A stretch of DNA of 63,957 nt, counting the filler. It is 7 parts of 7 records of this genome, joined end to end, with 100 filler letters (N's around TTAATTAATTAA, not from the genome) between each part and the next. Parts side by side here need not be neighbours in the genome. Positions count along the whole stretch, not along the records: positions 26,076 to 32,257 come from SRR7504441_2319; 6 more parts are not named here. One strand, 5' to 3'. Shown here piece by piece: positions 9,001 to 59,193 of the stretch. Under the pieces are notes generated by a model. The model searched no databases. It was given only the letters and a program-made list of their open reading frames with translations, and was not told where the DNA came from. A program made the position numbers and the translations under genes. Positions within the stretch are counted from its first letter, which is position 1. Every line of letters starts with the position of its first letter.

Positions 9001-11337
9001 GAATCTGAGGTGAAACTGCAGCTTGTCGCACAGCATGGCAGCTCACCTGCTGCACAGCTCCTTCCAACAAAATGGAGTGCAACCGAGGCTGAATTCCGGC
9101 TTGTCGGATTCTCGCTTGCGCGAGCTGGGAGTTTGACTGGGCAGCTTTCGGTTGCAGGCCGGACAACTGCGTTTACTGTGATTGCAATGGTGTCTGAACC
9201 GATTGTGCCCTACCCTTCCAGTGCCCCTTTGGCAGACAATGCCCTGACTCTGGTCGTGCGGGGCGCCAACCTGCCAGATCGCTGCCCAGCCCAGCTGGAC
9301 ATCCCAGGGCTGCGACTTGGGGTGCACATGACGCTATCGGAGTGCACTCGAGTGGGGTTCACTATCTCGCTGATACCACCAGCCAAATGGGGTCATCGGA
9401 CCGCAGGAAAGGATTACATCGGCGATTCTACCAGGGAGTACCTCAAGCTGAGGCGCTACGGAGCCAGCGGTCCTGTCGACGTTGTCATTGCTCGTGTTGT
9501 GCCTAGAGCTCCTTGTACAATTACAGCAGCTCATTTCAGCAGTTATGCCAGCATTAGTGTGCAAGGGATTGGGCTAGAGTCCGAGGCGTATCTATCTGCC
9601 CAACTCTTCGCGGGCTCATCTACTCAGCCACTTACTGAGCTGGACCTATCTCTGAGCACTGAATTTGGCTCCGCCACCGTGCTTGTTGCCAACTGGTGGC
9701 TGCTCGAGAGAGTAGCCAAGAATCGTCCACTATTTTTGTCCATCACTCGTGCTCGAATGGCGTGCGGACAGGCGATCTCAGTAGGGCTCCCACCCTCAGC
9801 TGTGCCGCCACAGCTCAAGAGGCCGATGGCATCGAGGATCGAAGTCGGATTCGGCCCATTCCACCTCCAGCTCCCGCAAGACACTTTCGTCGACCGAGGT
9901 ATCTGCTGCCTGCCTTGCAACGCTCACGAATGTCGTTGTCCAGTTCACAGAGGCAACCTCCAGATATCGGTCCAAGGACTCCCAGCCTGGCTGAAGTTCG
10001 ACTCGTCTAACAGAGTGTTCCACGGGACGCCGCAGCCCTCTGCTGCATTCCAGCCTGTCCACAAGCTCCAAGTGATTGCAACAAGTCCAGTCTCTGGGCT
10101 GTCCGCCCGACAGCAGGTCGAGCTCGCTGTAATTCCTGGACACGTTGTCCGAAACCGTGCCACCCGTGGTGACTGGCTTTGCCCGACCAAGACTGGTAAC
10201 ATTCGGTGTGCAGGGCATTTTGACTCCGAGAGCTTCGAGTTTCCAGCTATAAATCTAGTGCACACAGTCGTAATCCAGAACGAAGGCGGAAAAGCACCAA
10301 TCGCAAGCACCAACAAGTCGCCAAACTACGATAAGGCGACCTTGAGAAGCGACATGGTGTGCCTGAGCCGGCTTGTGCAGGACTTGGTGACGCTTCGCAT
10401 GGATGTGCTCAACCCAGCCTTATCAGAGTGGGAAAACGGTGCTGCGCCCTGGCTGCCACCTGCTGGGCTGACTCCTCTCGCAGTGTGGCTGCGTACCATT
10501 GAGCATGGGGAGCGCTTCGATTTCGATTCACTTGAAATATCAATGCGGATGCGCTCCGTTGCCGGTCTAAGGCTGTCCTGTCAGCCAGCCCAGCGTAAAT
10601 GCTTCCACCACTGGACACGAGTCAGGTTTGCGCTGCGTGCTGATGAGAACTGCGGCCAGCTGCCATTCCTTGACGGTCCTCGCTGTCAGTGGGAGTGGCA
10701 ACGCTCTGGTATGGCTGGAGTGTCAGGCAGCAGCGCTGGATGCCGCTATGTCACCAAGACAGGACCACATTCCGGAGCTGGCGGGAGCTGGGAAGCTCAG
10801 GGAGTTGATCAGGCATTCCGAGTGGACCCTGCTCGGGCTTCAGTGGGCCGAGCTCTCTTCTCAGCCACAGACTTTTCGACTGGTGTCGACGCTGTCCCTT
10901 GGCAGACAGGGTATGCACTAGGCAAGCCCGGCCTGCTGACCGCCTGTTGCAGGCCGTATGGCAACCAATGGCCTCTTGAGATTTTCGAGGTCTGGCCTGC
11001 GTCAGCCTCAATGTTGGGGGGCGGCACGGTGCGTCTGGAGGGCCGGTTCGAGCTGCACGCCGAGTACGAGATCAGATTCTGGGCAGTCTGGGCAGTCTAC
11101 CTAACCGACTGCGGAGCTCCTCAGAGTGCCAGTTCGCTCGAGTGCCCTGTACCAAAGGACGAATTCGGGGTGGCTCGGGGTGCCTGTGGTTCTCGGGGTG
11201 GCTTCGGGGTGGCTGGCAGCTGCAATGGGCAATCCAACACATACCAACTTCAAATACGAAACAAATCACCCTATTGTCACACTTCGTGGCAAGGTGGCAA
11301 GAACGTGAGCTTCACGTTTTTGCCACTATCCTTGTAA
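3..11337 (+). CDS. Giant (>3700 aa, 5'-truncated) probably extracellular protein of tandem Ig/IPT-TIG-like repeats, with a C-terminal dystroglycan-type cadherin-like (He_PIG) domain and an IPT/TIG domain
   Basis: ORFs 51-476, 433-2829 and 2833-11337 join via GT-AG introns 364-409 and 2808-2852 (possibly also an in-frame 8232-8270). The frame is open back to base 3. About 14 copies of GPLYAxVTVAG..VQVA modules alternate with GxNLPxxC..DF..C..F.L..WG modules. LPAWLKFDSSNRVFHGTP and IFEVWPASASMLGGGTVRLEG lie near the end. Confidence 0.8.
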
Positions 11338-11555: not shown

Positions 11556-12626
11556 CTAGCTTATTGCTTGATCCCTGTGCACTAGGTGTGCAAACTTGAC
11601 CACCGCATCGAGCACAACACACCGCTGGCCCGTGATCATCCGTAGAGCAAATTCAGCGTGCCCTTCATCCACCAGCAACCTGAGCTCGACTCGCGCCTTG
11701 TCCACTCGGCCGCTCTCCACCAGCACTCGGGCCAGTCGGGCTGATTGCTCTGGCGGGACCACGTTGTCATCTTGCCCATGGAGCAGCAGCACCCTGCAAC
11801 CGAGCTGACGGATGGGCTTGGACAGTTCGAGCTGGCTGGGGATAGAGGCATCGGTGAACAGCCACTCACCCGACTGGCCCCGCCGCCCCCTGCACGCCGG
11901 CCGCATCGGCGAGACCTCGGCCACCCCGCGGGCAGCCTCGAACAGCGCGTGGCTGGTGGGGTCGTACACCCCGCCTATCCCAATAAACCCGACTACCGAC
12001 CGAGCAGGCCTGGGCTCCCTCGGGGAGAGCAGGTGGAGCGCGCTGATGTGGGCACCACTCGAGTGCCCAACCAGCAGCACCGGAGCCCCGGCCCGCCACC
12101 GGTCGATCCAGTCGATCAGCCGGCCCAGGCAGTCGGCCTGCTCGAAGCAGTCCCCGTCCGGATAGTATTGGTACCCCGGCACGACGCAGCAGAGCCCGCG
12201 GCGGGCGATCCGCTGACCGAGCAGCCGATAGTACCCGCGCCGGCTGAAGCTCCAAACCCCGCCGTGCACGAATATCACAATCGGTCCGGCCGCCAGGGCT
12301 GTCCGGGTGCAGTTGTAAACGTCCGCGCAGCAGTGCTCCTGCGGACCGTACCGCAGCCCGCGCGCCGAGCCCGGGGGCAGGCCGGTCAGCATCCTGCCGG
12401 CCACCTTTGGGTTGGCGACCAGCGCGGCCAGCCCGGAGCCCAGGAGCAGCGGGGCCTCCGCCAGGCAGCGGTGGGCGGCGCGCGAGTCTCGGAGTGCCCT
12501 AGCCACCCGGCCCGGGATCAGCCCGAGCAACAGCCCCTGCAGGTCCCGCTGCCGCCGGGCCAACCGGCGCACCGCCAGCGCTACCGCCACCACCACCGCC
12601 ACCGCCAGCACATGGAGAGGACGCAT
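11556..12626 (-). CDS. Alpha/beta hydrolase, isoprenylcysteine methylesterase (ICME)-like carboxylesterase
   Basis: Intronless 356-aa ORF with N-terminal hydrophobic anchor, FVHGG oxyanion motif, GHSSG nucleophile, HGQDD Asp and GH His. Confidence 0.8.
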   Translation of the reverse strand: MRPLHVLAVAVVVAVALAVRRLARRQRDLQGLLLGLIPGRVARALRDSRAAHRCLAEAPLLLGSGLAALVANPKVAGRMLTGLPPGSARGLRYGPQEHCCADVYNCTRTALAAGPIVIFVHGGVWSFSRRGYYRLLGQRIARRGLCCVVPGYQYYPDGDCFEQADCLGRLIDWIDRWRAGAPVLLVGHSSGAHISALHLLSPREPRPARSVVGFIGIGGVYDPTSHALFEAARGVAEVSPMRPACRGRRGQSGEWLFTDASIPSQLELSKPIRQLGCRVLLLHGQDDNVVPPEQSARLARVLVESGRVDKARVELRLLVDEGHAEFALRMITGQRCVVLDAVVKFAHLVHRDQAIS

Positions 12627-22971: not shown

Positions 22972-25900
22972 ATGAAGCGCAAGTCGCTCGGGGGCTCGCG
23001 GGAAGGGAGCAATCGCACCGCCTCAGAGGCCATTCGGGTGGTGGTCCGCTGCCGACCGCTGATCAAGCGGCAGGTGCCCCCAGCCCTACTGACCCGCTGG
23101 CCTCTTAACGGTGTCAACCAGATCCACGGCCGCGAAAAGTCGGTGATCCAGTGCGTGGATCATTGGACAGTAGCCTTGCCCGGTCCAAACCACAAGAGAT
23201 TCACGTTTGATCGAGTGTTTGGCGAGGCCTCGGAGCAGGAAGAGGTGCGGCTCGGCTAAAGCAGGCGGCTGAGGATCTGTCGGTAAGGTCTACCAGAACA
23301 CAGCGCTCACCCTGGTCGAAGCAGCGCTCGACGGATACAACGGCACTGTGTTTGCATGTAATTCGCCGCATGCATCACTGCTGCCTCCTCACGGTTGCCG
23401 ATGGTGCAGATGGTCAGACTGGGAGTGGCAAGACGTACACCATGGTGTGGCGTGCCGCCTAATTGTCCCTTTTGACTTGCTCTATGGCGGCTCACAGCAG
23501 TCTTAGCCTGAATTGTGCAGGACGGCCACACGGATAAGCAAGGGATAATGCGAAGGGCATTCGAGGTTGCGATGGCCTGATTCAACGCGAGTGACACGCG
23601 TGCACCACAGGACATTTTCGGGGGGATAGACCGGGTCCATGAGTCGGGCGCACACTCCACGTTCTTGGTTCGGGTCAATTTCGTTCAGATCTACAAAGAG
23701 GAGGTGACATCAGCCAACTCTAGGGTAGATGACTGATCGTGGTTGAGGTCTACGACTTAATTTCGAACCAAGAAGGAGTTGCTGGAGCTCCAGGCCAGGC
23801 CCTCGAGCTGCGTGAAGATCCAAGGCATGGGTTTTTCATTCAAGGGGTCACAGCAAAGGTGGGCGCAGCCCTAAGCCGCTATGCCACAACTGAGTGTTGG
23901 GTTTAGGTGGTGCGGAACGCATCCCAGTGTACTGCAGCCCTTGAACGTGGCATACAGAAGCGGGTGACGGGTGAGACAGCAATGAATGTCAACTCGTCAA
24001 GGTGCACACCACACATTGGACCCACTGTGCTGAGACTGAAGACGCAATCATCCACTTGTGCAGGTCACATACCGTATTTTCAATTACTGTTGAGCGTGAA
24101 GACATCGTGGACTCCTCAAATGCAGAAGTGGTGTCATAGCCTTAGTAAATGCTGTAAATTAACGCCATCGTAGGTTACTTCGGTGGGGGTGCTCAATTTT
24201 GTGGATCTTGCCGGCTCGGAGAAGCTGACTCGCACCAAGGTTGGCAATGCTGCTGCTTTACTTGACTCTATGTGCTTTCTTCAGTCGGAGGGAGTGCGCA
24301 AAGATGAAGCTCGCTACATCAACTCATCCCTGTCCGCTTTGAATAATGTTATTCGCGCTTTGGTCGCAAATGCTCGCAGCAGCAAGAGCAACCATGTGCC
24401 TTACCGTGATTCTACATTAACCAAGATATTGCGGGAGTCGTTGGGTGGCACAGCTCGGTACCTTTAAAGCATGGCACAATGCTTGAAGCTGTGTCATTTT
24501 CAGGTGTGTGATGGTGGCAAACATAAGCCCTTCTGAAAAAGACGTCGAGGAGACGGCTTCGACACTGTGGCATGCACACAGGTGAGTCCTTACTGGTCTA
24601 TAGGCATGTCTTTTCAAACTCACCACTTTCCCTGTGCAGTGCTAAAGAGATCAGAAATAAGCCAACCAGACATTATGGTGCTGGTGTCTCGAGTATTCAG
24701 GGCTACAAACTAGAAATTGCGAGACTCAAGTCCGAGCTGCACACCTGCATGCGTACTGAGTATAAGATTGCAGGCAGCAACTTGAAGACCAGACCTTTTC
24801 AAATGAGCAAAAAATTTCAGAGCTGACCGAGGCACTGATGGTTCCGACATTTGTGTCTTCTTTAGCTGAGCGCTGGCGAACAAGCGCGGAAGCCCATAGA
24901 GAATCGAATGTGAATGACCGCACCAAGGAGCTTACTCTCGAAATCCAGTCAATGGCAGCTGAAGTACAGCGTTTGAAGGAGGAACTAGAGGTGCTTTGCA
25001 GTTTCTGAAGAGAACGATGCTGTGTGTGCAGGTGACCAAAGTCCGTGACAAGTCAGAATATACGAAGATGGATCGCGATCTTAAAGATGCAAAACAAGAG
25101 ATTCTACACCTTCGGAAGCTCAACGATGAGCAGTCACTAACGCTTGCCAGAATGGAAAGTGCACAGATTGGCTTTGCTGCCGAGAGACAAGAATTGCTGG
25201 TCCGGGCCTGCCAATCACAATCCGAAGGAGGTGCCACGGAGAATATGGCTGAGAGCGATGCTGATACGGAACATCTGGCTGCCACAAAAAGACAGCTTCA
25301 GCAGGCCCTCGAAAGGTTGGGTGACAAGTCGAAGTCGCAGGCCCAAGTAGAGCAGCAATATCAACATGCACTGGATAAAGCGAACAGTGAGGTTCACCTA
25401 CGAGAAAAACTCGAGCAGCAGCTGGATCAAGTCCTGGAGATAGCCCAACAATGCGAACAAACCGAACAGGAACTAGCGTCCGAGGTAAAGAAGCGAGAAA
25501 ACACGGAGAAGGAACTAAATCATACGAAGAACACACTTGGTGAAGAGAGGCGGCAGCGAGAGAGGGTAGAAGAACAGCTGGCCAAGGCTCTGGAAAGCCT
25601 CAAAGGGCAGTCTTCGCAAAACTCTGGTCAATCAAATGAAATGCACAGTGCCATGCAAAGACTAGATAGCACCATTCGCGACAAAGAAGAAAGAGAGAAG
25701 CAGCTGCTCGAAACCATAGGGGATTTTAGGCACAAGAATGAGCACCTGGAATCAAGTATTCAGCAGCTCGAAAGAAACATGGAGAAAGTGAGAGGCGATG
25801 CTCTAAAACGACACAAGACAGAGCAGGCACATTTGCAGCAGGCTGTCGTACGACTTCAGAATGCGTCTCACAAACAGGACGAAACTGAGCAGCGGCTGCT

Positions 25901-25975
25901 TCATGCAATGAATCAAGTGGAGAGTGAAACCAAACACTGCGAGCAAACCGAGCAGCAGCTCCAGCAGGCCATGTG
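22972..25975 (+). CDS. N-terminal-motor kinesin with coiled-coil tail (3'-truncated)
   Basis: Spliced motifs [62 protein letters not shown]; heptad-rich tail 24996-25975. Confidence 0.93.
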
Positions 25976-26075
25976 NNNNNNNNNNNNNNNNNNNNNNNNN
26001 NNNNNNNNNNNNNNNNNNNTTAATTAATTAANNNNNNNNNNNNNNNNNNNNNNNNNNNNNNNNNNNNNNNNNNNN
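25976..26075. other. Artificial contig-joining spacer
   Basis: 44 N + TTAATTAATTAA + 44 N. Confidence 0.98.
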
Positions 26076-26364: not shown

Positions 26365-28091
26365 ATGGATCCAGAGCCTGGCGAGCCCGGGCTGTTTGAG
26401 GCAGCCCTGGGGCGGGCGGCCGGGGCGATCAACGGCAGGTGGAAGCGGACCTAGCCCGGGCGGTACCACCGGGGCCCTCCGACGAGCCGTTACTCGCCGG
26501 GGCTGGATCGGGCAGTCGGCCGCCAGGCTCAGCCGGCAAGCGCCGGCGCCGATCGGAGGAGCAGCTCACGTGCAGGTTGGCCGGCGGGCGGGGCGGGGCT
26601 GACGGCTGCGCCCAGCGAGGTGTGTCGGCAGAATCCGGGCGAGATCTGCCTCGGCGTGCTCGGGCTGCTGGCGGTGCTGCTGCTGGTCCTGGCGTTTGTG
26701 GAGTTTCCCACCGCGTCCGCCCGGCCGGCCGGCGGGGCTGACGAGCTTGCAGGAGAGAGCAGTCGATGCAGCACGCGGCAGCAGTGCACGACAAGCGTGA
26801 GGCGCGGCCGCACAAGGCAAACCGGCCCGGGGTCCCCTGTGATAGAGGACAGGCACCGGCCCCGCCCCGGTCGGCCGGAGAGCGGCCGCTGATCCCAAAG
26901 ACATCTGAGCCGAGCCGGAGCCGGGACCCGCTCGATTCGGCCTACGAGAGCGGGCGGGAGTGGCATAGCATCGAGCTGCGGGATCCTGTGCTAAAGAGGA
27001 AGATCACTCGATGGTTCATGATTTACAAGCCGGAGAGAGTGCAGCAGCCAAAGACCCCCGCGGTGCTTGTGATGCACCCGAACCAAGGCTCGTTCCAGTT
27101 CACCTCCGAGCTATTCCTGCTCGAACCACTGGCCAAGGAGCAAGGCTTCGTGCTCGTGTATCCGCAAGGACTGCCAAACGGCAAAACGCCCACCTCGAGC
27201 CTGTCGCTGGCCAGCGGGCCGAGCTGGAACGCCCTAGGCACCGGCGCGGGCGACCGAGACACGTGCATACACCCTAAGCGGGCGACTCAGACCGCGCAGC
27301 CCACCTGCAAAGAGGCGGGGCACACCTCGGGCTCAGGAGATCCGCTCTCGACTGTGTGTGATTCGACTCCTTGTGCGTCGGACACAGCGTTCATCGGGGC
27401 GCTGATCGATCGGCTGGTGGACACGGAGGGTGTGGACAAACTGCAGGTGCACATCACCGGGCAAGGGCTCGGCGGGATGGCAGCTGAGCAAGTCGGGATC
27501 AGCCTGGCCTCCAAGATTGCCTCGGTGGTCCAGGTCTCCGGCGCCCCGCTCGTGGGCTACAATGATCTGCCGACCGGGCCGGTGTCCCTGCTCTCGATCA
27601 GGGGCCGGTCGGACACGACCATGCCGGCCTCGTCGGACCAAGCATCGAACGGGGACGCTCACTGGTGTCCACACAACTGCAGCACCAACGTAAGCTTGGT
27701 CTCGCCAGAGGGTTTCCACTTTGTGCCAGAAGTGAAAGTGGTCCAGACCTGGGCGCTGGCTGCCGGCTGTAAGGACCTCCGGAAGCGAGCATTCCAACCG
27801 TCGGTGCACATCCCCGGGCACAGCAAGACCCATTTCGCGGACCAGTTTGCTAAGATCAATGGCAGCTGCACTAAGATCGGATCCAGCTGCGGCTCGACGG
27901 TTGAGGTGGTGACATGCATGGTAGACGGCGGGCACTCGCTACCCTGGCACGGTTCGGAGGGATGGACCGCTCAGCTGGAGCACGGCAAGGAACAGCTAGG
28001 GCGAGCTAGTCGCGGCTGGACTAAGGTTGCTAAGGCCAAGCTGCTCTGGCCGCGTCTGGCCTGGAGCTTCATGGCCGCACATCCAAAGTGA
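26365..28091 (+). CDS. Type-II membrane-anchored PHB-depolymerase/LpqP-like alpha/beta hydrolase with the nucleophile Ser absent
   Basis: TM segment ICLGVLGLLAVLLLVLAF joins ORF 26766-28091 via intron 26715-26752. Motifs GFVLVYPQG, SWNA, DTAFIGALID, ITGQGLGGM, GRSD, GGH. Start is uncertain. Confidence 0.7.
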
Positions 28092-28304
28092 TGGAGCCTA
28101 GATGGAGCCTAAGTAAGTACTACGAGCACTAGCCAACTAGATGAAGTTACGAGCAAACACTAAATTGGGTACGTACATGCACGCAATTGTTGATGAATTG
28201 TGTATTGAATACTAGAACAAACTAGCGGTTAACCTAACTCCAGTTTGGCCCGCGAAATCCGGCTTCAGCAGCCGATCCATAATACATTCAATGAGCTCTG
28301 TTGT

Positions 28305-30237
28305 TTAGCGCGAGCCGGCTGCAGCAACCATCGCATTGCGTGAGAGCCGGGCAGTCACTTCATCCGGCGTCCCGTGCAGATAAACTACCACACAGCTCAA
28401 ATTCTCGGTGCTCTCACCATCAAACGCTGCAGTGGTGATCCGCTCCGCTGCCTGCCCCGCAGTCTTGCCCTGATCCTTGGCGGTGGCTGCATGCTCGATC
28501 GCCTCCCTCGGCTGCATGATCGACCAGACCCCGCGCGAGGCAATCACCAGCAAGTCGTCCTCGTCCGTTAGCTCCCAGCAACTCACGCTCGGGGCAGTCT
28601 CGACCAGCCGCTGCGGGTGCTTGTGCCTTCTGTGGCCTACGGAGCGCGACACGGGCAGCATGGTGGCCGGGCGGGCCCACGGGTCCACTCCGCCGGTGTG
28701 CGGCGGCTTCTTCTTCTTGAGCTTCCACTGGGCGCCCGGTGTGGCCAGCGGGTTAGTGTGCACGATCTGGCCGGCCGTGTCGACAAGCACCACCTCGCCG
28801 CCCGCCGCCACGATCCTGGCGCCTTCAGCCTCCACATCCGGAGTATGCTTCGAAGAGCAGTTGACCGCTTTGCCGGCCCTGCGACCATGCCGTTATAATG
28901 CCGTTGGGGTTGCAGCCACCTGTTGAGCACGACCATTGTATCTCCGAGCGAGATTACGTAAAGCTTACGCCCGAGCACCAGCGCAGCGCCCACCGTGCAG
29001 CCGTCGTCTCTCTTCTCCTTCTTGGCGTAGTCAATAAACCGTTGGTCCAGCTCGGCCAGACAGGCGGTGAACGCTAGCCCAACTACCTCGGCCGTGAGCA
29101 CCTTGGGCATGCTGTACTCGACAGCCTGCATTAACTGCCCGCCACTCAGCACCGGCCACCGGCTAGCCTTGCCTGCTGCCCGAGCTCCCCGGCGAGGCCC
29201 ACCCGGCAGAACTCGGCCGCCTGCTCGCCGTTGTGCCCATCGAACTGTGCCAGCCGGTCGGGTCCGGCAGGCTAGCCGGCACACACCACTGCATAGAGCG
29301 CGGCCGGCGAGTTGAGCAAGCGCGTGTGGTCGGGTGGATAGAGGAAGAAAGGGCGCTGGGCCTTGTACAGGTTGTCAATCAGCAGGCAGCGGTCCTCCTG
29401 GTGCCCCCGCCGGCCCCGGTTTTGGTTGACTCCGCCAGTCGAGGGCGCCTCCGGCATCGGGCCCGCGGGCACGGCAGGCTGGTGCACCACCTGCGGCTGT
29501 GGGACGGCCGGCTGGGCCGGGGCGATCTGGCCGGTGTACTGCCAGATCTGCACGTTGCTCCCGCTGAAGTAGCCGGCCGCTTGCCACTGAGACATCGTCT
29601 GCCCGTCGAACGGGCCTGCACACTAGGCTCGAGCCCGCACTCAAGCAGGCGGCACCGTGGGTCTGGCTAGGAGTGCCGTGCAGGTCTGTCACGCAGTACT
29701 GCCACCAGGAGCCCGGGGCCGAGAAATCGTACTGCTGGACCTGCCGGCCGTTGGTTCGGCCCCGCCCGCGTTGGGACCTCCGGCGGTGCCAGCTCCGGGG
29801 CCACCGGCTGTGAAGGGTCCTCCCGCTTGCTGCCGAAGATGACCTCGACCGCCGAGACGTCCTGCGCGTACGAGTGTGCCCAGATCTCTTCGCGCGGCTT
29901 GGTGTAGATGTCGTTGTCGCCGTGGTCATTCAGCTGCATGGCCATCTTGGTTACGCGGTCAAACGTCCCGGAGTCCCCCTTGCGCAACCGCCTGCCCGGG
30001 GCTCGGGGCCGGCCGGCCGGGGGGCTCACTTGAGCGCGTGCGGGACTGTCTCCCGGGCCAGGAGCACCGAGCCTAGGAACTTGCGGCAGGCTGACTCATC
30101 GAATGGCTCCTCAGGCTCCTCCGCGGCCGGCTCCTCATCCTCGGCCGGCCGCTTGCGCGAGGCGCCTGGTCCGGCCGGTTGGGCCCGGGCTTGCCGGCCA
30201 GCGCACCGGGCAGTCCCAAGAACATGTTCGCATCCAT
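28305..30237 (-). CDS. CD2BP2/Lin1(U5-52K)-like region + GYF domain fused to a PP2C-fold domain
   Basis: Spliced model: ETVPHALKRL..FDRVTKMAMQLNDHGDNDIYTKPREEI, then WWQY..HGPFDGQTMSQWQAAGYF. The same exon continues to GRRGHQEDR, followed by FDGHNG, GCT, LGD and EGARIVAAGG. Confidence 0.8.
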
Positions 30238-30270
30238 CCTAGAGAACCCTTGGCCACTCGCCCGAGAGCA

Positions 30271-32074
30271 ATGCCGACCCCGAAACCAACGGACAAAGCA
30301 ACGGAACGTGCTGAGGTGCAGACGTCTGTGATGGCCCAGGCCGAGAGCGGCGTCGGTGCGCGGGCCTGCAGGCGGGCCGGGGGCAGCCGGAGGGCAGCCT
30401 GCGAGCTGGAGCCGGCGGACGAGCTCCGGTCGAGTGCGGCCGCGCAGGCGGTGGAGGGGGCCTGGAATTGCCTTGACCAGATGGAGCGCCGGCTGCGGTG
30501 CACAGCAAGCCGGTGGTGAGGGCCCAAGCCCGGCGGACAGCTGCTGCGACGAGCACGGCAGCCACTGGCGCCGGGTGCAGCGGCTGGCGTACGAGTGGCC
30601 GTTGGGGCTCGCGCTCTGGCTGATGCTGGCGGTGCCACCTGCGCGGCCGGCCGGAGCAGGGGCAGGCCACCGTGCCGACCGCCCTCTGGGAGGGCCATGA
30701 CGACTCGCGCGAGTTCCAGACGCTCGACCGAGTGGTGCTTGGGGTGCCCTCCCCCCCCGCGCCCGCAAGCACCGGCAGATTACGTTTGGGCTCACCATCA
30801 CCGAATGCGGATTCCGGCTCTGGATCTCGTTAGCCGACCTGCCGGTGCACCGACTGCCGCCCCCCCCCGACCGAGGGACAGCCGCGCTGGCTGTCGCTGG
30901 TGCCGCGGCAGGAGCACACGCGGGCCGAGTCGGGGGCGGGGCCTGTATGGTCGCAGTGGTTTCTGTGCTCGCAGGTGGGTGCTGCCTAGTTGGTTGTGAG
31001 TCGTGGGCAGTGCTGCTTGGACGACAGGTTTGGGTCGGACCCAGAGTACAGGGCGGTGCGGGCCGCAGGCTGCGGGGGCAGGACGGGCCGCAGATGGTGC
31101 TCCGGGTGAGAGGATTTGTGATCCTGCGGGCGCTCTGGAACTGGTCACCTAATCATACTACCATAGCATATGGCGTAGCGCCGCTCTTTATATCTCCCGG
31201 CTGCAGCGTCGACTTTGGCGGGTGTGTGTTCTTCCTGGCAGCTGCCTCGACCGCATTCTACCACTACATCGAGGGCGTCAACAAGGGTGCTGCCCCCCCC
31301 CCCAGCTCAGCCCGGCCAGCCCGGCCCAGCCCAGGCCATCAGACTATTCTTCCTGCTCCCTCGGATCCCGGGCGCCGAGCCCGTCTGTGTGGCCGCCTTC
31401 CAGTCCGGTGCCTCGCCCGCAGGCCGGCCGCCAGCCGGTGCCAGCTAACCGGATTGTGCCCACGCTGGTGGTGAGCCTGCTGATGATCTTTGGGTGGTCT
31501 CTTGTGTTCCACTACTTGCTCCAAGGCTTCTGCGACCAGAGCGACGACCCTTGCAGCGGGTGGGCGTACGGGCCGCTCAGCTGACTCGCCGGCTGCAGCT
31601 ACGACTACTGGGGCTCGATCTACGCCGCCATGTGGAGCTGCCTGCAAGTGATGACCATGGACAGCTGGTCCTCGGCGATCGCACGTGACCCCCCCGCCCG
31701 GCCGCGCCAGCCAGCATGCAGGCCCCACGTTCGATGACCACGCGTACATGTGGGCGGTCTTCCTGTTGGCGATTGTCTCACTCGGATTCATTCTGACCAA
31801 CCTAATCACCGGCGTGATCGTGGACGCTATTAGCCGGGCTCAGGACGCGCTAGAAGGCGGCCAGCTAGACCGGGAGGACATCTGGCTCAACTATGCACGG
31901 ACCGGCCAATTCCTGATCGGCCGACAAGAGCACCCGACCGAGCTCCGGCTGGCCAGGCTGGAGGCCATGCTGGGCAAGCTGCTCGCGCACGAGGGGCTCG
32001 ACTGCGGCGGGGCGGAGCTGCGTGCTAAGCCGGATGAGGCCACCCCGGCGGCCGGTGCTGTCCCTTTGATATAA
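30271..32074 (+). CDS. Single-domain (6TM) voltage-gated-like cation channel (BacNav/CatSper/EukCat-like)
   Basis: Pore YWGSIYAAMWSCLQVMTMDSWSSAIARP, S6 FILTNLITGVIVDAI, C-terminal RLARLEAML coil. The N-terminal exon structure is approximate. Confidence 0.75.
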
Positions 32075-34005: not shown

Positions 34006-37000
34006 ATGCTGATGTCCACCTGTGGCGCCGGACCCTCCGTCGCCGAGGCCGAGGAGGAGCTGGAGGACGACTCAGTGTGTGCGGTGTGCGGCGGCGGCGA
34101 ATCCGAGGTCGGGCTGCGACCAGGCCCCCACCTGACCGGCGCGACAGGAGGGCAACCAAATCATCTTCTGCGAGCAGTGCGACGTGCCAGTGCACCAGGC
34201 GCCCTGGGACGGCGCGGGGCGGCCGGTGCGAGCGGGGGCTCGGCAGGAGTGCTACGGGGTGGAGCATGTGCCTGAGGGTGAGTGGTACTGCGACCTGTGC
34301 CGGGAGCAGCGCGGGTCGGCCCGAGCTAAGCCGCCCAGCTGCGCCCTGTGCAAGTCGTCCGAGGTGGGGGCGTTCAAGCCTCTGATCGACCCGGCTGGGT
34401 ATCCCTTTGACTGGCGAGCTGGCTCACTCGGCCTCCAGGAAAGCCAACCAGTGGGCGCACCTCACCTGCGCGCTCTCCATACCGGAGACCTGGCTCGTCT
34501 ACAACGGCAGCGAGATCCAGGCAAACCATCCACGCTAGCACCAGGCGGGGCTCAACCGGGCGGCAGGGTATCAGCGGGGTGGACACGGTTGCCAAGGCAC
34601 GCTGGAAGCTCGAGTGCTCGCTGTGCTCGCGCAAGTCGGGTGCCTGCATCCAGTGTTGCCACGGGACATGCTCTGTGGCCATGCACCCGATGTGCGCCCA
34701 GCAGCGCGGGTGAGCCGCCAGCCCACAGCAGAACGCTGAGTGCCAGTCCAGGTTGAGCTGGCTGGACGCCACCACTGGCTCCTTCAAGGCCCGCTGCCCA
34801 AAGCACATGCAAGCCATGGCCGGCTCCAGCGCACCGCCACGCACACCGAGCGAGGCCGAGAGCGCTGCGAACCGGTGATTGCTTGGGCAGCAGGGTGTCG
34901 GACTGAAGGGTCGGCAGGCATTCAAGGAGTGGCAAGCAAGGTGAGAACAAGACACTGCCCAAGCCCAAACAGCCGACTGACCCGAACCCGGCGCTGTTCC
35001 CCAAACCCAAGCGGTCGCTCCCTGGCTAATCAGCTGGCTGAGCCGGCCTTGGCAGCTGCGGCAACTGCAAGCATTGCCTCAACCCGCACCTCAAGCAGCG
35101 GTGTATTCACATGCCTCGTGGCCCAACCCGAGCCAGCAAGATCGGCCTTCCACCGCGCGGTGCTGCACCTGGCCAATCAGCGACCAGCCACTCACTGTGG
35201 GCCAGCCCCAGTCCAAGAGCGCAACCCACCACCGGAGCAGCCAGCCGCGCAGCTGCTGGATGAGTGGGAGGTCTGGTGGCGGATTGAATCAATCTTGAGT
35301 GGCTGTGCAGGTGCCTGTATCGCTTGAGCAGCGCAGGGCGGTGCAGAAGCAGATGTGGGAGCACGCCGGGCCCTGGTTTGAGCTGTGGGACCCGACGGGC
35401 GGGATTGGCCTGCTGATGGAGGGACTTGAGGCCCAGATCAACAAGCTGGCCGGGGATCAACTTCCTAAGAACGGAATGTTTGAGCTACTGAGCGAGCAGA
35501 TGCAGCGGTTTGCGGCGCTGGAGGCTAGACTGGCGGTGGCGGGTCAGCTTCTGGTTGAGGCTGAGCAGCTTCCGAATAATGTCGTGACCGAGATCCCAGT
35601 TGATGTGGTGAACAAGCAAGCAGTGCCCGAGCTATCAGAGGAGGGCGAGCCGAGCGAGCCGAGTTATAAGCTAAAGATGCGTCTGCGGATTCAGGCCGAC
35701 GGCGAGGTATCCATCGAGCCTGGCAAGTCGCCAAGCTGGTGCTTGGTCTCAATTGATGCGAACCGGCTCTCCGTGCAGGTTGTTGGCTAACTAGCGAGCT
35801 GTTGAGCCAAGGGCTGCAGATCGATATGGCGGAGCCTGATCAGCTGCTGGGGGTAGCCGGCAATGGCTGGGAGGCCAAATGTGTGGAATCCAGCGTACTC
35901 AGGCGGAGCATGCTGGTGCAGGAGCAGCCAGACGGTGAGCAGCTTTGCAGTAAGCAATGACCTGTGCGCTGCAGATGAGCCAATTGAGATCGTCCAATGC
36001 CCCGCCGACTGTCCAGAGAGTGAGCTGCTCGCGAGCCAGCTGGCCGAGCTGCAGGTCATGCCCTAATCGACAATATGCTGACAGAGTGCAGGGCTCGCTC
36101 CAGCAGCTGAGTGCGAACAATGCAGCCAAACTGCAGCAGTTGGAGGCAGTGGCAGCAGGCCAGCTAGCTATGGAAGCAGCCAAGCGTTGCCGAAACGATG
36201 CTGTCGGGAAGTTGGAGGTCCGCTTCCTGGAAGAGCTAGTGACAAAGTCGACCCCGGTTGACCTCGGGATCACGCTCGCTGACGACGACAATGACGACAG
36301 CTGCGAAATGTGTGGCAACGGCGGCGAGCTTCTCTGCTGCGACGGGTGCCCGGCCGCGTTCCATCTGTACTGCCTCACGCCACCATTGAAAAAGATTCCA
36401 ACGGGCGACTGGTACTGTACCCAGTGCACTGCCAGGCAGGAGCGGCAGGCTGCCATCCAGCGCAACCTTGGCAAGACTGACAAGCCAGCAAAGAAGAACC
36501 GCAAGAACGAGTGCGGTTATTGCCAACGAAGGCTATATGATCTGAGTAAGCCTAAGCCAGCAATTGAGAACTCCGACGTGCTTGTTTGCACCCAATGCTC
36601 GCGTGGTTTCCACAAGCAGTGCTGTGGGCAGCCGACCCCCGACCAGGCTGATTTCGTCTGTGAGACCTGTCTCAACCCCCCAGCAACCAAACCCAAAGCC
36701 ACCAGCAAGAAGCCCCCAAGCGCTCTTGGGCTGTTCAGCGCTGCACACAGGGCGGGTGAGTTGCCTATATGAAGGTGGATGGGCTGACTAGGCGGGTGCA
36801 GGGCTCAAGTCTGAGCATCCACACCTGACAGGCGCTGAGCTGAGTGCCAAGCTGTCGGCCATGTGGAAGGCACTGAGCCTGGAGAAGCGGGCTCCATTCC
36901 TGCAGGCTGCCAAAGCAGGGCGGACTGAGGTGGATCCGGGCGAGCCAGACCAACCACTGATGGCCGCACTGGATCGGGTGGATCCAGGCCACTGGGACCT

Positions 37001-38185
37001 CAAGTGCAAGCTGTGCAGCCACAAACAGGGTGCCGCCGTCCAGTGCAGCATTCCCGAGTGCACCAACTGCTTCCACCCTATATGCGCGCACGCTGCCGGG
37101 CTGCACATGGTTATGGACAAAGTCTCTGTGCACGGGTACGACTCTGTGGCGTATTGCCCAAAGCACTCGCGCGAGATCCGCAAAAACTCGCGTCGAGCAT
37201 CTGGCAAGGAATTTCTTCCGTCGCTGCAAGCAGACAGGCCGCTTAGCTGCAGCGTGTGTCATGCTGTTGGGAGCACTGAGAACGAGGGCGAGCTCTACGT
37301 GTGCGAAGACTGTGGAGTCTGCGTGCACAGCAAGTGCTACAACATTGAGCCAGGCACCTCTCGACTTGGGTGGCGCTGCCTGCCATGCACTGCCGGGGTC
37401 AAGCAGCCGGCCTGTGGACTGTGCTCACTCCGAGGCTGTGGGGGGGCGATGGTTCCGGTGCACGGCTCGCCCGGTCTGTGGGCGCACCTGTTGTGTGCCA
37501 AGTTCGTCTACGGTGCAAGGTACGGAGCGCAGCTATCGATTGGTTGATTGTTCGTGTGCAGGGTAGTGGGCAATGCGGTGACCGCCCCACCTGCTGCGCC
37601 AGAGGAAGAGCTCTTCTGCCTGTGCCAGCAGCCCTACGAGGAAGGCGTGCTGATGGTGGGATGTGACGTGTGCAATGGCTGGTTCCACCCAGCGTGAGTC
37701 TACAGCTTGATGTCAAGCGCATGACTGTTGAGACTGCCAGGTGCATCGGGCTCTCGCAGGAGGAGGCCGAACAACTCAAGTTCTATCAGTGCCCACAATG
37801 CGCTGATTCTTCTGAACAGCCCGGTGTGTGATCTATCAATGGATCTTTGGCGTTGAGGCTCATGCAGGCGAAGATCATGAACAGCCTGTCAGTGCGAGTG
37901 GGGCAGTGTGCCCAGGCTGCGGCCACGTGTCAGCCACGTGAGGGCCTTAGACTAATGCCAATTGAGGCGTGGGCAGGCATGCTTTCAATTGTGAGTCGTG
38001 CGGCCAGCTTCTAGTACAGGAGCGGCGGCGTAGCAAGCCAGAGGCCAAGCAGCGCTGGCGCACAGAGTCGAGCAGTTCGCCATACGAGCAGGTCCGCAAT
38101 AGATTGTAAGGTGGCACTGAGCCCACGCCAGAGTGACGACGATGACTTGTTGGACGAACCGCCGTTCAAGAAAGCCAGGCGATAG
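34006..38185 (+). CDS. Multi-PHD chromatin reader (BRPF/JADE-like PZP module, several PHD fingers, HMG box)
   Basis: CAVC..IIFCEQCDVPVHQECYG..WYCDLC; WAHLTCA; DSCEMCGNGGELLCCDGCPAAFHLYCL; AELSAKLSAMWKALS (HMG); FCLCQQPY..CDVCNGWFH. Confidence 0.85.
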
Positions 38186-48656: not shown

Positions 48657-48756
48657 NNNNNNNNNNNNNNNNNNNNNNNNNNNNNNNNNNNNNNNNNNNN
48701 TTAATTAATTAANNNNNNNNNNNNNNNNNNNNNNNNNNNNNNNNNNNNNNNNNNNN
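48657..48756. other. Artificial contig-joining spacer
   Basis: 44 N + TTAATTAATTAA + 44 N. Confidence 0.98.
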
Positions 48757-48757
48757 A

Positions 48758-51700
48758 GTGGCGATGAGGGAGAGTCAGGGGCTGGAGGTGCTGAGGCACC
48801 ACTCAAAGCTCAAGGAAGAAAACAATGAGCTGTTGAAACAATTGCAAGAAGCCGAGGCTCATGCTCGTGTGATAGAGCATGAACGACAAGACGCTCTGGG
48901 TGAAGCACAAGCAATATTCAGAGAAGTAATGGTCTTCAAAAGTGTCAAGGATAAGACAGCGAATGCCAAGCCTGATATGGTGTTAAATATGGTGAAGAAA
49001 CAGTTGGGAGACGCCAAACTGCAAAAGGGGCAGATGTTGAAAATGGCAATGGCAGCAATTGAAGCCCAGAGTGAGGACTTCAATATGCGGCTGGTTCAGA
49101 TAGCAAACCACGTCGACGAGGTCGAATCAAAGTATCAGTGGGCTTGTGGTGAGATGGAGAGGAAATCTGAGATGTGCGTAGGTCTCGAGAACGATAGAGA
49201 CACCCTGAGAGAGCAGCTCGACAGTAAACAGCAGGCAGCAGAAAAGGCTGCAAACGAGCATGGAAAGCTACTTGAAATTGTCCAGGGAGCTTTGCGACAG
49301 GAGAACACCAGGCTGAAGGAACAAGTAAAGCGAGCTCAGCTGCAAGTCTCTGATTCCAAGAAAGACTACGAAACCTTGGCCAAGGGACACGCTGCAGCAG
49401 AGTGCATATCAGAGAAGTTGGAGCATCATGCACACGTGCTCGAGTCACAGCTTGCAGCGATGGCAAGCACACTAGCTGACTGCAAAGAGAGCCGCGATGA
49501 TGTGCATCAGCAGCATGCAACACTGCGCAAGAACCACGATAAGCTGCAGAAGGAGTATGATAAGTTGGTGTCGCGTCTTGGTGGCGTGACATGGTGAGTG
49601 CTGCTGCTTGTGAGCTGGTCTAACAGCTTGGGCTGACAGGGAGCTAGAGCAAGAGAATAATAAACTCTCTTCTCGGGTGGATGAACTGTCAAGTGAGCTG
49701 CAAGAGTCCAAGGAAGCCACGTCAGAGCAAAGCCAGGCACTGGAGGCGCTGCAGGGGGAGCGTGATCAGTTGACTGGAGAGCTAGCAGAGGCATCTTTTG
49801 CTATTGGGGCAAGGACTGAAGAGCACTCTCTGCTGGTGATGTCCCATAACGAGCTTGGGCAGACTTACCGTAGGCTCATGGAGAAGATGGCGCAATTCTC
49901 TGAAGAAATCCCAACCCTTAACGAAGGGCTGAGAAACGCATTGAGCAACCAGAGCCGGCTGCAGCAAACTTATACAGACCTATCCAAAGAGGCCGGGCAA
50001 CTAGTTGAACAAGTCAAACAATCAGAAATTCAGTGCACCGAGGCCGTTGGGACTCTCAAGGCATTGGAGCAAGCCGCAGCTGACCATGATGAGCAGTCAA
50101 CAGAGCAAGCTGCAAAGCAGCTTGCAAAACAGCTTGTAGAGATGAAGTGCGAGCACGAGAGGATGTCAGTGGAGAATGAAGCACTGGGCCGCAAACTGCA
50201 GGAGACAGTTGGGGCGCTAGCTGAGGCACAGGCGGGCAGTACGCACCTTACAAGTGAAGCAATTCAACTAAAGAGAGAGAATAACGAATTAAAGTCAGAG
50301 AGGGCAGGAATGCAGCAGCACTTGACGGACATGGCCACCCAGGTTGTGGAGTACAAAGGCGAGGCGGCCAGGCAACTTGCAGAAATGGACGCACAAGCCT
50401 CATTGCAGCGTAAATGCAACGAGCTTACAAAAGAGAACCAGAGGCTTTTTGGTACAGTTGCTGAGTATGAAGCTAATAGCCGCAGGTCAATGGCCGAGGC
50501 TGCAGCGACAAAGCAGCGGCTCGATCAAATGGAAATGGAGGCAGATGCTAGTGCCAAGCTGCAAACTGAGCTATCGACGACCAAGCAGCAGCTCATACGT
50601 GCTGTAGAGACATCTGAGAATCTAGCTGTGAGTCTGAGGACCGTAAATCGCGAGTTAGAAGAGAATGACTGTGCTGAAACGATTGACCAATACCGAGAGA
50701 TGCTTCAATTCAAGGACTCTCAGCTCAAAGCACTTGCTGACGGTTGTCAAGCAGAATTGAACAAGGCTCTGAGTCGTGTGACTGAGACACAGGCCGAACT
50801 ACAGCAAGCGTTGCATGACAGAGAGGAGGCGTTTGTGGAGCGGGATCAGCGCGCCAGCACCACATTGCTGCTCGAGAACCGGATCAAATCTCTTGAAGAT
50901 GAGGTGGTCTCTCTCACAGACGAGCTAGATTCTTGTTCGGAGCAGGCCGAGAGTGAGCGCAATCACTTTACTGCAGTTGTTACTGGGCTGGAAGAACAAC
51001 TCGCAAAGAGCAGCAGCGGCCTAGCGCAGGCTGAGAGTAGGCAGTTAGCACTCAGGGACAAAGCATGCACGTTGAAAGCCGCTTGGGCGATTTTAACATG
51101 GCAGTCGAGATTGGATCGACACAAACTGGCCAAATCAGAGCAGGCCTTGAGCCAGGCACAAGAGGCCCAGCAAACATTGCGTGATCTTCAGCAGGAGAAA
51201 GTGTTATGGGATGCCAAGCTGCAGGATCAGAGTGCAGAATTCAACAATTTCATAGATGTAATGCGACGGCATGTCAGCGAGGTTGAACAAGGCCGGATAC
51301 GGGCGACAACTCAGGCTGAGAGTGCGCAGCAAGCACTGATCGCACTGCAGGCTGATGAAAACACCAAAAGTGCTGAGTTGGAGGCAAGTCAAGCTGAAGT
51401 GGCACGATTAACAGGTGGCCTAGAGGAGGCGGCTGATGAGGTTGAAGAGGCCAAAGCGCAGTCTACGCGAAAATGCGCAGACATGCAGGAATTGCTAAAT
51501 GAGCTGGAAGATGAGAATCGAAACCTGATCTCAATGCTGAGGGATGCCCGAGTAGCACTTGCCGAAGCACAAGGTACGGTGTTACAGTCGCCAAGCGATA
51601 AGTCAACTGGTAAGCTCCAGTCTGATTTAGATCGAGCGTTGGAAGAATCCAAGACAGCCTCTGCTAAGCTTAGGGCATCTGAGGAGAACAGAGCGCAAGA

Positions 51701-57077: not shown

Positions 57078-57183
57078 AAGATACAAGTATCATAATTGGG
57101 CCGGCCTTGGGCCGCTTGAGCCGCCCATTTTCTTTACCGATTCGACGGCAATCGGTGGTAACGGCCACTGATCAGTCAGGGCG

Positions 57184-59093: not shown

Positions 59094-59193
59094 NNNNNNN
59101 NNNNNNNNNNNNNNNNNNNNNNNNNNNNNNNNNNNNNTTAATTAATTAANNNNNNNNNNNNNNNNNNNNNNNNNNNNNNNNNNNNNNNNNNNN
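59094..59193. other. Artificial contig-joining spacer
   Basis: 44 N + TTAATTAATTAA + 44 N. Confidence 0.98.

Follow-up and report, generated by a model that had tools for sequence, protein, structure and literature searches.

The gene on the minus strand at positions 30237-28305 of the window (the whole stretch of 63,957 nt that was analysed) encodes a 551-aa protein in which a block homologous to the D2 part of the spliceosomal protein CD2BP2/U5-52K and a GYF domain are joined, in one reading frame, to a domain with the PP2C phosphatase fold. The gene is transcribed in marine samples, and an orthologue with the same order of parts, P0153, is 52% identical to its product; several aspartates of the PP2C metal site are replaced in both proteins. 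The reading that we favour, with a probability of roughly 55%, is that this is a real, expressed and conserved gene of marine eukaryotes, whose D2-plus-GYF module targets the U5 small nuclear ribonucleoprotein (snRNP) or other splicing proteins that are GYF ligands, and whose PP2C-like part is non-catalytic or atypical.

The head of the protein is short, acidic and similar to a nuclear localization signal (NLS). It is followed by a helical block homologous to the part of CD2BP2 that neighbours the N-terminal domain of PRP8 in the 20S U5 snRNP of human, then by a GYF domain whose signature for proline-rich peptides or DIM1-type partners is intact, and then by the in-frame PP2C-fold domain, which belongs to a protist PP2C subfamily with an insert after the 'AGG' motif. 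The D2-plus-GYF module would direct the protein, in the nucleus, to the U5 snRNP or to other GYF-ligand splicing proteins, and the PP2C-like domain could then serve as a non-catalytic or atypical module for phosphoprotein binding or regulation, rather than as a standard Mn/Mg phosphatase.

Gene structure and transcription

Reading the minus strand of positions 28100-30900 together with the stop-to-stop open reading frames (ORFs) gave a complete gene, running from an ATG at 30237-30235 to a TAA stop at 28307-28305, with a coding sequence of 1656 nt in eight exons (Table 1). Its ends agree with those of the original prediction, which had been made from the letters of this DNA and had also spoken of tiny introns; the seven introns measure, from the first to the seventh, 41, 38, 37, 40, 42, 38 and 41 nt, six being of the GT-AG type and one of the GC-AG type. 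There is no N inside the gene. The peptide from which the prediction argued is present as well: '...LLARETVPHALK' closes exon 2 and 'RLRKGDSGTFDRVTKMAMQLNDHGDNDIYTKPREEI' opens exon 3, with intron 2 (30029-29992) as the sole interruption.

The exon that carries the fusion is the fifth (29615-29287). It is enclosed in a stop-to-stop ORF at 29272-29622 and holds, in one uninterrupted frame, the C-terminal half of the GYF domain, a linker rich in Pro and Gln, and the PP2C motif 1 'R..HQED'. The earlier claim that the end of the GYF domain and PP2C motif 1 share an exon was thus upheld, and it is backed by RNA contigs and by an independent genomic ORF described below. When the seven exon pieces were scanned separately with Pfam, GYF was found on exon 5 (E 4.2e-5, 23.6 bits, profile positions 13-37 of 45), a half domain scoring under the 25.7-bit cut-off, and PP2C was found on exons 7 and 8.

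A search of public sequencing runs listed 24 runs, of which 20 contained part of the stretch (14 recorded as RNA, 11 studies). These RNA runs were all marine or seawater samples, and the shares of the stretch contained in them were small (at most 0.18). RNA contigs of marine poly(A) metatranscriptomes from four runs (X1, X2, X4 and X5), belonging to three studies, were aligned with the window at a likeness of at least 90%. Joints in these contigs skip introns 3, 4, 5 and 7 exactly, the last of them in two studies, and a single 448-nt contig of X1 starts in exon 3, crosses exon 4 and ends in exon 5 (29978-29454). The X2 contigs cover 29616-29399, as well as 29368-29287 joined to 29244-29176. 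A loose end of 15 letters in X5, beyond 29991, is identical to window positions 30030-30044 and confirms intron 2, and one of eight letters in X2, beyond 29616, is identical to 29657-29664 and confirms intron 4. Support from RNA was obtained in this way for five of the seven introns; in the contigs of the four runs cover was absent over introns 1 and 6, over the 30 nt at 29369-29398, and at the 5' end.

Three candidates were set aside. An X1 piece at 30116-30149 (34 nt, three mismatches and a long loose end) is probably an unrelated match to an acidic repeat. A 68-nt GT-AG alternative to the 38-nt GC-AG intron 6 would remove 10 residues that align without a gap to P0153, and a 64-nt version of intron 3 is at odds with the 37 nt skipped at the X1 joint.

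Between the contigs and the window there are 16 differences, one in the 3' untranslated region (UTR) and 15 in coding sequence. In the frames of the gene model all 15 are synonymous third-position changes, including the five variants within exon 5 and, more particularly, two in the linker between the GYF and PP2C domains. This pattern of substitution is strong evidence that the entire reading frame, linker included, is translated and under constraint.

With regard to the flanks of the gene, a 359-aa open frame (30238-31152, minus strand) abuts the ATG upstream and is in frame with it. This frame is rich in Pro, Arg and Ala, has 68% G+C, and shows no recognisable coding signal; RNA contigs do not cover it, and the 5' UTR of the orthologue contains nothing that corresponds to it. 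The frame is probably non-coding, but translation may start within it, upstream of the ATG. On the other side, a 449-aa ORF (26742-28091), assigned to no Pfam family, is convergent with the fusion gene, the two stops lying 213 nt apart.

Conservation and rarity of the architecture

An exhaustive HMMER search of 1.84 billion representative sequences with exon 8 gave 691 matches at E<=0.001, and a single one of them, P0001 (307 aa, 51% identity), reached E<=1e-30. The 90% cluster of P0001 has five members, among them the 524-aa protein P0153, whose parts follow in the same order as those of the window protein. Pfam recognises in P0153 a GYF domain at residues 138-180 (E 1.2e-6, 28.5 bits, above the cut-off) and a PP2C domain at residues 216-500 (E 7.8e-47), and global alignment with the window protein gave 271 identities in 521 positions. 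The fusion is genuine at the level of DNA and of RNA, and with an orthologue of the same domain order it goes well beyond chance. Identity is distributed unevenly along the two proteins, amounting to 71% in the D2-like block, 65% in the GYF domain, 47% in the PP2C domain and 36-38% in the linkers, so the D2-like block is the most conserved part and the PP2C domain the least conserved folded one.

A scan of metagenome contigs with P0153 gave 594 pattern matches and one confirmed locus, L001, which encodes the same protein as P0153. An in-frame TGA lies 21 nt 5' of the ATG of L001, so the short N-terminus is complete. At 267-316 this contig retains a 50-nt GT-AG intron at the place and in the phase of intron 2 of the window gene, while the remaining intron places are spliced out; L001 is a partly processed transcript, and the related organism likewise has very short introns.

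Further members of the group were found with profile A1, built from residues 1-194 of P0153 aligned with the translated exons of the window gene. In a collection of 5.8 billion sequences this profile gave four matches, all of them fragments of the P0153 orthologue group. Two, P0155 and P0156 (the latter at 88% identity), are genomic ORFs that continue into an intron positioned like intron 4 of the window gene, and P0157 is exon 1 of L001 read onward into the retained intron. The fourth, P0158, is a single genomic ORF that holds the C-terminal half of the GYF domain, the linker and PP2C motif 1 and enters an intron after '...ALYSV', at the place of intron 5 of the window gene; an independent genome thus preserves the fusion exon. 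Altogether, three intron positions are common to the window gene and the orthologue group. Word-indexed searches gave nothing significant among 2856 candidates for exon 8 ('longer' lengths) and among 1279 candidates for P0153 residues 1-195 ('near' lengths), the second outcome probably reflecting that a truncated cluster representative hides P0153.

The combination of GYF and PP2C domains is rare; the original prediction, too, had named no known case. A regular expression for the GYF signature matched none of the 150 best PP2C relatives. A Pfam scan of P0153 and the 67 relatives of at least 360 aa found PP2C in 67 of the 68 proteins and GYF in one, P0153 itself; the 83 shorter relatives were checked for GYF by the regular expression only. 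The ESM Atlas returned PP2C-only clusters, at 0.86, for the whole of P0153, and the accessible passages of the full-text literature naming both 'GYF domain' and 'PP2C', PMC7159879 among them, describe no such fusion. This is a new domain architecture assembled from known kinds of domain, and as far as has been seen it is confined to the organism of the window and the P0153/P0156 group, i.e. to two or three related marine lineages.

The PP2C-fold domain

The AlphaFold2 (AF2) model of P0153 contains a confident PP2C fold with a pLDDT mostly above 90, and the best matches found by Foldseek were plant clade A PP2Cs (E ~1e-24, target TM 0.77-0.88). When the window protein is aligned with ABI1, 'ASDGVWD' is replaced by 'ASRGVWS', 'SIGD' by 'SVGH' and 'KDN' by 'TEN'. 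The columns of the metal site are numbered here by residues of PPM1A and were counted over 148 other PP2C relatives (94 for the motif 1 column). The equivalent of D239 ('DG'), an aspartate in 146 of the 148 relatives, is R in the window protein and V in P0153; that of D243 ('WD'), an aspartate in 134 of 148, is S and A, respectively. The D282 equivalent ('DN', an aspartate in 147 of 148) is E in the window protein and remains D in P0153, and the D38 equivalent of motif 1 (86 of 94) remains D in the window protein and is N in P0153. The D60 equivalent is kept, but the full acidic set that binds metal in PPM proteins (the equivalents of D38, D60, D239 and D282) is present in neither. Loss of the D239 and D243 equivalents is thus common to both orthologues, and further ligand losses differ between them, a pattern consistent with the canonical metal site having been lost in an ancestor and less constrained thereafter, with the fold itself kept under purifying selection. 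Judged by these motifs, the domain is likely to be a pseudophosphatase, or else an atypical enzyme.

The original prediction had a PP2C tethered to the U5 snRNP. Fusion to a PP2C fold was confirmed, but the tethering of a PP2C activity became doubtful, because the DG aspartate and other metal ligands are lost in both orthologues. An active PP2C, bound covalently to the U5 snRNP by the CD2BP2-like module and dephosphorylating snRNP proteins in the assembly or recycling of U5 or of the tri-snRNP, appears unlikely to us for the same reason: besides the changes listed above, the window protein has H for the aspartate of the 'GD' motif, the differing additional ligand losses in two lineages suggest a relaxed constraint on the metal site, and the PP2C domain diverges more than the other folded parts. 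Several observations nevertheless weigh in favour of catalysis. The motif 1 R..ED, FDGH and GDT residues of the window protein, corresponding to R33, E37, D38, D60, G61, H62 and 'GDS', are retained, and residual or altered activity may accordingly persist, if one goes by the residues present. The PP2C fold is predicted with confidence and is under purifying selection, all nine of the variants inside the PP2C region of exons 5-8 being synonymous. The evidence for targeting, namely the match of profile A1 to CD2BP2, is the same for an active phosphatase as for the non-catalytic or atypical domain that we prefer. Finally, in the available text of PMC10454571, proteins of the CD2BP2 family are adaptors of PP1 through an RVxF motif in human and in Plasmodium; this motif is missing here, so the fused phosphatase could stand in for PP1 docking.

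After the orthologue, the PP2C half is closest in sequence to PP2Cs of protists and algae that stand alone, attributed by their sources to Cymbomonas and Telonema (38-40% identity on exon 8, E ~1e-18), for example a partial protein of Cymbomonas tetramitiformis (KAK3244079.1, P0002) and a transcript of Telonema subtile (P0003). The segment between the AGG and SR anchors is 35-45 residues long in these nearest relatives, against a median of 18 in the 131 relatives with both anchors, and it reaches 50 residues in the window protein, including a KLKKKK patch. In contrast to the window protein, PP2Cs of the P0002/P0003 type keep the DG, WD and DN aspartates and, like all 150 relatives examined by regular expression, lack the GYF motif.

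Two other PPM-family proteins are of interest for comparison. In TAB1-type PP2C pseudophosphatases a PP2C fold is maintained by selection with its metal-ligand aspartates replaced, and the protein works as an adaptor rather than by catalysis; the likeness to the window protein lies in this description, and TAB1 has no GYF or CD2BP2-like part. PPM1G (PP2C-gamma), a PPM-family member with a large acidic insert within its catalytic domain, has been implicated in spliceosome assembly, and the original prediction had brought it in as support. Apart from this functional tie of a PPM-family domain to pre-mRNA splicing, no relation to PPM1G was found: the closest relatives by sequence and structure are other PP2Cs, of plant clade A and of protists, the window protein lacks the catalytic aspartates, and its PP2C part contains no large acidic insert of the PPM1G type, the sole sizeable insert being the 38-aa segment with the basic patch.

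The N-terminal part and its likeness to CD2BP2

Profile A1 was also searched against the PDB (177,635 distinct sequences). The top two matches were chains of human CD2BP2 in the 20S U5 snRNP, 8q91_F and 8q7q_G (E 0.0041 and 0.0042, 20.2 bits). Positions 26-89 of the profile align with CD2BP2 residues 149-225, including the 'LL.RETV..AL+RL' and 'VY...RE' parts, and positions 149-170 align, collinearly with this stretch, with residues 293-314 of the CD2BP2 GYF domain. GIGYF1, SMY2 and GIGYF2 followed at E 0.025-0.056, their matches being limited to the GYF domain, and unrelated proteins appeared from E 0.55.

As described in the available part of PMC11102862, D1 of CD2BP2 (residues 62-130) forms a hook on the PRP8 RT/En region and competes with DIM1, D2 (150-233) lies near the PRP8 N-terminal domain, and the GYF domain (280-341) binds DIM1; with these boundaries, the matched block is D2. 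In the excerpted text of PMC10454571 the defining features of the CD2BP2 family are the GYF domain and a centrally placed UD domain that bears the signatures PFN and GNY, and the UD of that description is, on the portions available of both papers, the D1 of PMC11102862. According to the same excerpts of PMC10454571, PP1 docks on human CD2BP2 and on Plasmodium GEXP15 at an N-terminal RVxF motif, which is reported absent in chlorophytes and dinoflagellates and is therefore not universal.

Human CD2BP2/U5-52K (yeast Lin1; PDB 8Q91, 8RC0 and 8Q7Q), an assembly factor of the 20S U5 snRNP, and the window protein thus have in common an acidic region upstream of the block, the D2-like block (149-225), a spacer, and a GYF domain with the signature GPF-x4-M-x2-W-x3-GYF, which is intact in the window protein. 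They differ in that D1/UD and RVxF are missing from the latter, and in the position of the GYF domain. In CD2BP2 this domain (280-341) ends the protein of 341 residues; in the window protein it is internal and a 340-aa PP2C-fold extension follows, so the GYF domain is not C-terminal as it is in the CD2BP2 family. Only about 30 residues precede the D2-like block, and strict and loose RVxF patterns gave no match in either the window protein or P0153. Consequently, what had been predicted to be a protein of the CD2BP2/Lin1 kind is, by its domain content, a D2-plus-GYF derivative and not a full member or orthologue of the CD2BP2/Lin1 family: the predicted 'ETV..AL+RL ... Y...RE' block does align with CD2BP2 149-225, with the GYF domain collinear and CD2BP2 the top PDB match, but D1/UD and RVxF are absent and an E-value of 0.004 is marginal.

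Going by this domain content, the fusion protein would be nuclear and would bind the U5 snRNP, but a number of results weigh against this. The match to CD2BP2 is weak, the D2 stretch by itself scoring 12.3 bits with an i-Evalue of 1.1. Single-sequence phmmer searches of the PDB with exon 3, exon 5 and P0153 residues 1-194 did not find CD2BP2 and gave chance matches to TRPM7, GCP6, TOM22 and RcsB, and canonical CD2BP2 was retrieved neither by the word-based search with P0153 1-195 nor by the A1 search of the 5.8-billion collection. The PFN and GNY signatures of D1/UD occur in neither the window protein nor P0153. The residue that separates the GYF subtypes is Val in both orthologues, i.e. neither Trp nor Asp; in the part of PMC12249416 that deals with subtypes, the CD2BP2 type has Trp at this position and a long beta1-beta2 loop. 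Lastly, confidence is low in the N-terminal part of the AF2 model of P0153, which places three helices in the D2-like block (31-43, 48-57 and 60-75) at a pLDDT of 55-65 and has values of 40-56 in the GYF domain.

These results could be explained by a GYF-adaptor/PP2C-like protein acting apart from the U5 snRNP, its likeness to D2 being due to chance or to a short helical motif, and its GYF domain binding ligands of the PPG type, for example in cytoplasmic mRNA control as for SMY2/GIGYF. The C-terminal half of the GYF domain, indeed, scores about 17 bits against the domains of GIGYF1, GIGYF2 and SMY2 and 5.3 bits against the CD2BP2 GYF, and the ESM Atlas feature search with the N-terminal part gave generic GYF clusters only (0.78-0.81), which can serve as a lead and nothing further. 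Such a function nonetheless seems improbable. CD2BP2 remains the top PDB match owing to the block outside the GYF domain; the order and spacing of the parts (block, about 40-55 residues, GYF) are those of CD2BP2; the D2-like block is the part on which the two orthologues agree best; 13 residues separate Y from GPF, a long beta1-beta2 loop like that of the CD2BP2 type by the rule quoted in PMC12249416; and NLS-like basic patches are present in the protein.

Plasmodium GEXP15 and other 'CD2BP2-like' proteins offer a parallel to the proposed targeting of the U5 snRNP or other splicing proteins by a D2-plus-GYF module joined to a phosphatase fold. By the accessible text of PMC10454571 these protist members have diverged far from human CD2BP2 and share little identity with it, and they are GYF-family proteins tied, like the window protein, to a Ser/Thr phosphatase, there PP1 via RVxF. 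GEXP15, which by that account has both UD and RVxF, recruits PP1 in trans, whereas the window protein is without both and carries a PPM fold in cis.

Implications

The natural fusion suggests, as a concrete hypothesis, the action of a module of phosphatase type at the U5 snRNP beside the known CD2BP2-PP1 link, and it is a Rosetta-stone lead from CD2BP2-type U5 factors to PPM-fold proteins. It also offers a minimal D2-plus-GYF targeting unit and a clean example of a probable PP2C pseudoenzyme maintained by selection. The recycling of the 20S U5 snRNP and the displacement of CD2BP2 are presented as open questions in the available part of PMC11102862. A broader and quite speculative proposal, to which we give little credence, is that CD2BP2-family proteins are general phosphatase-targeting subunits of the U5 snRNP and that PP1 docking through RVxF, as in animals and apicomplexans, has been replaced here by a covalent PPM fold, reading or removing the phosphates that U5 or tri-snRNP proteins receive during activation. 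If that were true, a PPM-CD2BP2 partnership in the recycling of the U5 snRNP, so far unrecognised, would be predicted in other eukaryotes too.

That two adjacent genes were merged by a faulty gene model, or the region mis-assembled, is highly improbable, for although no one RNA contig covers the whole gene (29369-29398 and introns 1 and 6 having no RNA) and the window is a scaffold containing 528 N, the GYF end and the PP2C start share a stop-free exon here and in P0158, the full-length ORF of the orthologue lies on contigs of 1897 nt (P0153) and 1724 nt (L001), the linker variants are synonymous and the gene is free of N.

Features of the gene and its surroundings

Table 1 Exons, introns and selected features of the fusion gene (positions in the window)
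Feature	Position	Strand	Description and support
Exon 1	30207..30237	-	ATG and residues 1-11 (M..LGLPG); gene model; N-terminus 'LGLPGASRKR' kept in P0153
Intron 1	30166..30206	-	41 nt, GT-AG; sole support, protein collinearity with P0153; no RNA contig over it
Exon 2	30030..30165	-	NLS-like 'SRKRPAEDEE', acidic tract, first part of the D2-like block (...FLGSVLLARETVPHALK), aligned by the profile to CD2BP2 from residue 149; 70% identity to P0153
Intron 2	29992..30029	-	38 nt, GT-AG, phase 2; X5 RNA loose end; same place and phase in L001
Exon 3	29778..29991	-	Remainder of the D2-like block (RLRKGDSGTFDRVTKMA...DIYTKPREEIWAHSYAQDV) and linker; RNA contigs X1, X2, X5
Intron 3	29741..29777	-	37 nt, GT-AG; X1 RNA joint 29736/29774, cut placed +4
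Exon 4	29656..29740	-	GYF N-terminal half (YDFSAPGSWWQYCVTDLHGTPSQTH); X1 contig
Intron 4	29616..29655	-	40 nt, GT-AG, phase 1; X1 joint and X2 loose end; P0155/P0156 run into the intron there
Exon 5 (fusion exon)	29287..29615	-	GYF C-terminal half (GPF-x4-M-x2-W-x3-GYF), Pro/Gln linker, PP2C motif 1 (RRGHQED) to '...ALYAV'; X1 and X2 contigs over 29399-29616 and 29287-29368
Intron 5	29245..29286	-	42 nt, GT-AG, phase 0, in-frame TAG inside; X2 RNA joint 29244/29287
Exon 6	29173..29244	-	PP2C motif 2 (FDGHNGEQAAEFC...); X2 contig 29176-29244
Intron 6	29135..29172	-	38 nt, GC-AG, non-canonical donor; sole support, gap-free P0153 alignment across the junction; no RNA cover
Exon 7	28920..29134	-	PP2C middle part (..DDGCT..LYVISLGDTMVVLN); Pfam PP2C E 9.5e-4; RNA contigs X1, X5
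Intron 7	28879..28919	-	41 nt, GT-AG; RNA joints in X1 and X5, two studies
Exon 8	28305..28878	-	PP2C C-terminal half and stop; Pfam PP2C E 1.9e-17, 64.2 bits; RNA contigs X1, X4, X5
Exon 8 insert	28790-28677	-	38 aa with KLKKKK patch
Exon 8 metal-site changes	28634-28632; 28535-28533; 28406-28404	-	H for the 'GD' Asp; R for the 'DG' Asp; E for the 'DN' Asp, respectively (ABI1 alignment)

The G+C content of the window ranges from 46% to 68% among blocks of 2 kb, and its 528 N lie in short gaps; the patchy composition and the gaps point to a scaffold of a compositionally patchy eukaryotic genome. A search of the window with Rfam found no family. Two ORFs of 811 and 2835 aa (394-11337, plus strand), which adjoin each other and have almost no introns, consist of many similar modules of about 100-120 residues and form a giant repeat protein, the first 1000 residues of the longer ORF matching no Pfam family. 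Very long coiled-coil ORFs rich in Glu, Gln, Leu and Lys occur at 48713-54665 (294 and 1683 aa) and at 24963-26027 (354 aa), both on the plus strand; they border N gaps, and around them both the GC skew and the AT skew are strongly positive.

Other genes of recognisable kind include a chromatin reader on the plus strand at 35954-37547, with a PHD finger, an HMG box, a PHD-like zf-HC5HC2H and a further PHD finger over two adjoining ORFs, and a sulfatase (Pfam PF00884) on the same strand at 57172-59141, in two ORFs, the second of which ends at an N gap; a frame change or a small intron presumably separates them. On the minus strand, a single 356-aa ORF at 11556-12626 encodes an alpha/beta hydrolase (BD-FAE/Abhydrolase_6), and a myosin motor domain (Pfam Myosin_head, E 3.3e-31) at 62929-63957 runs off the end of the window.

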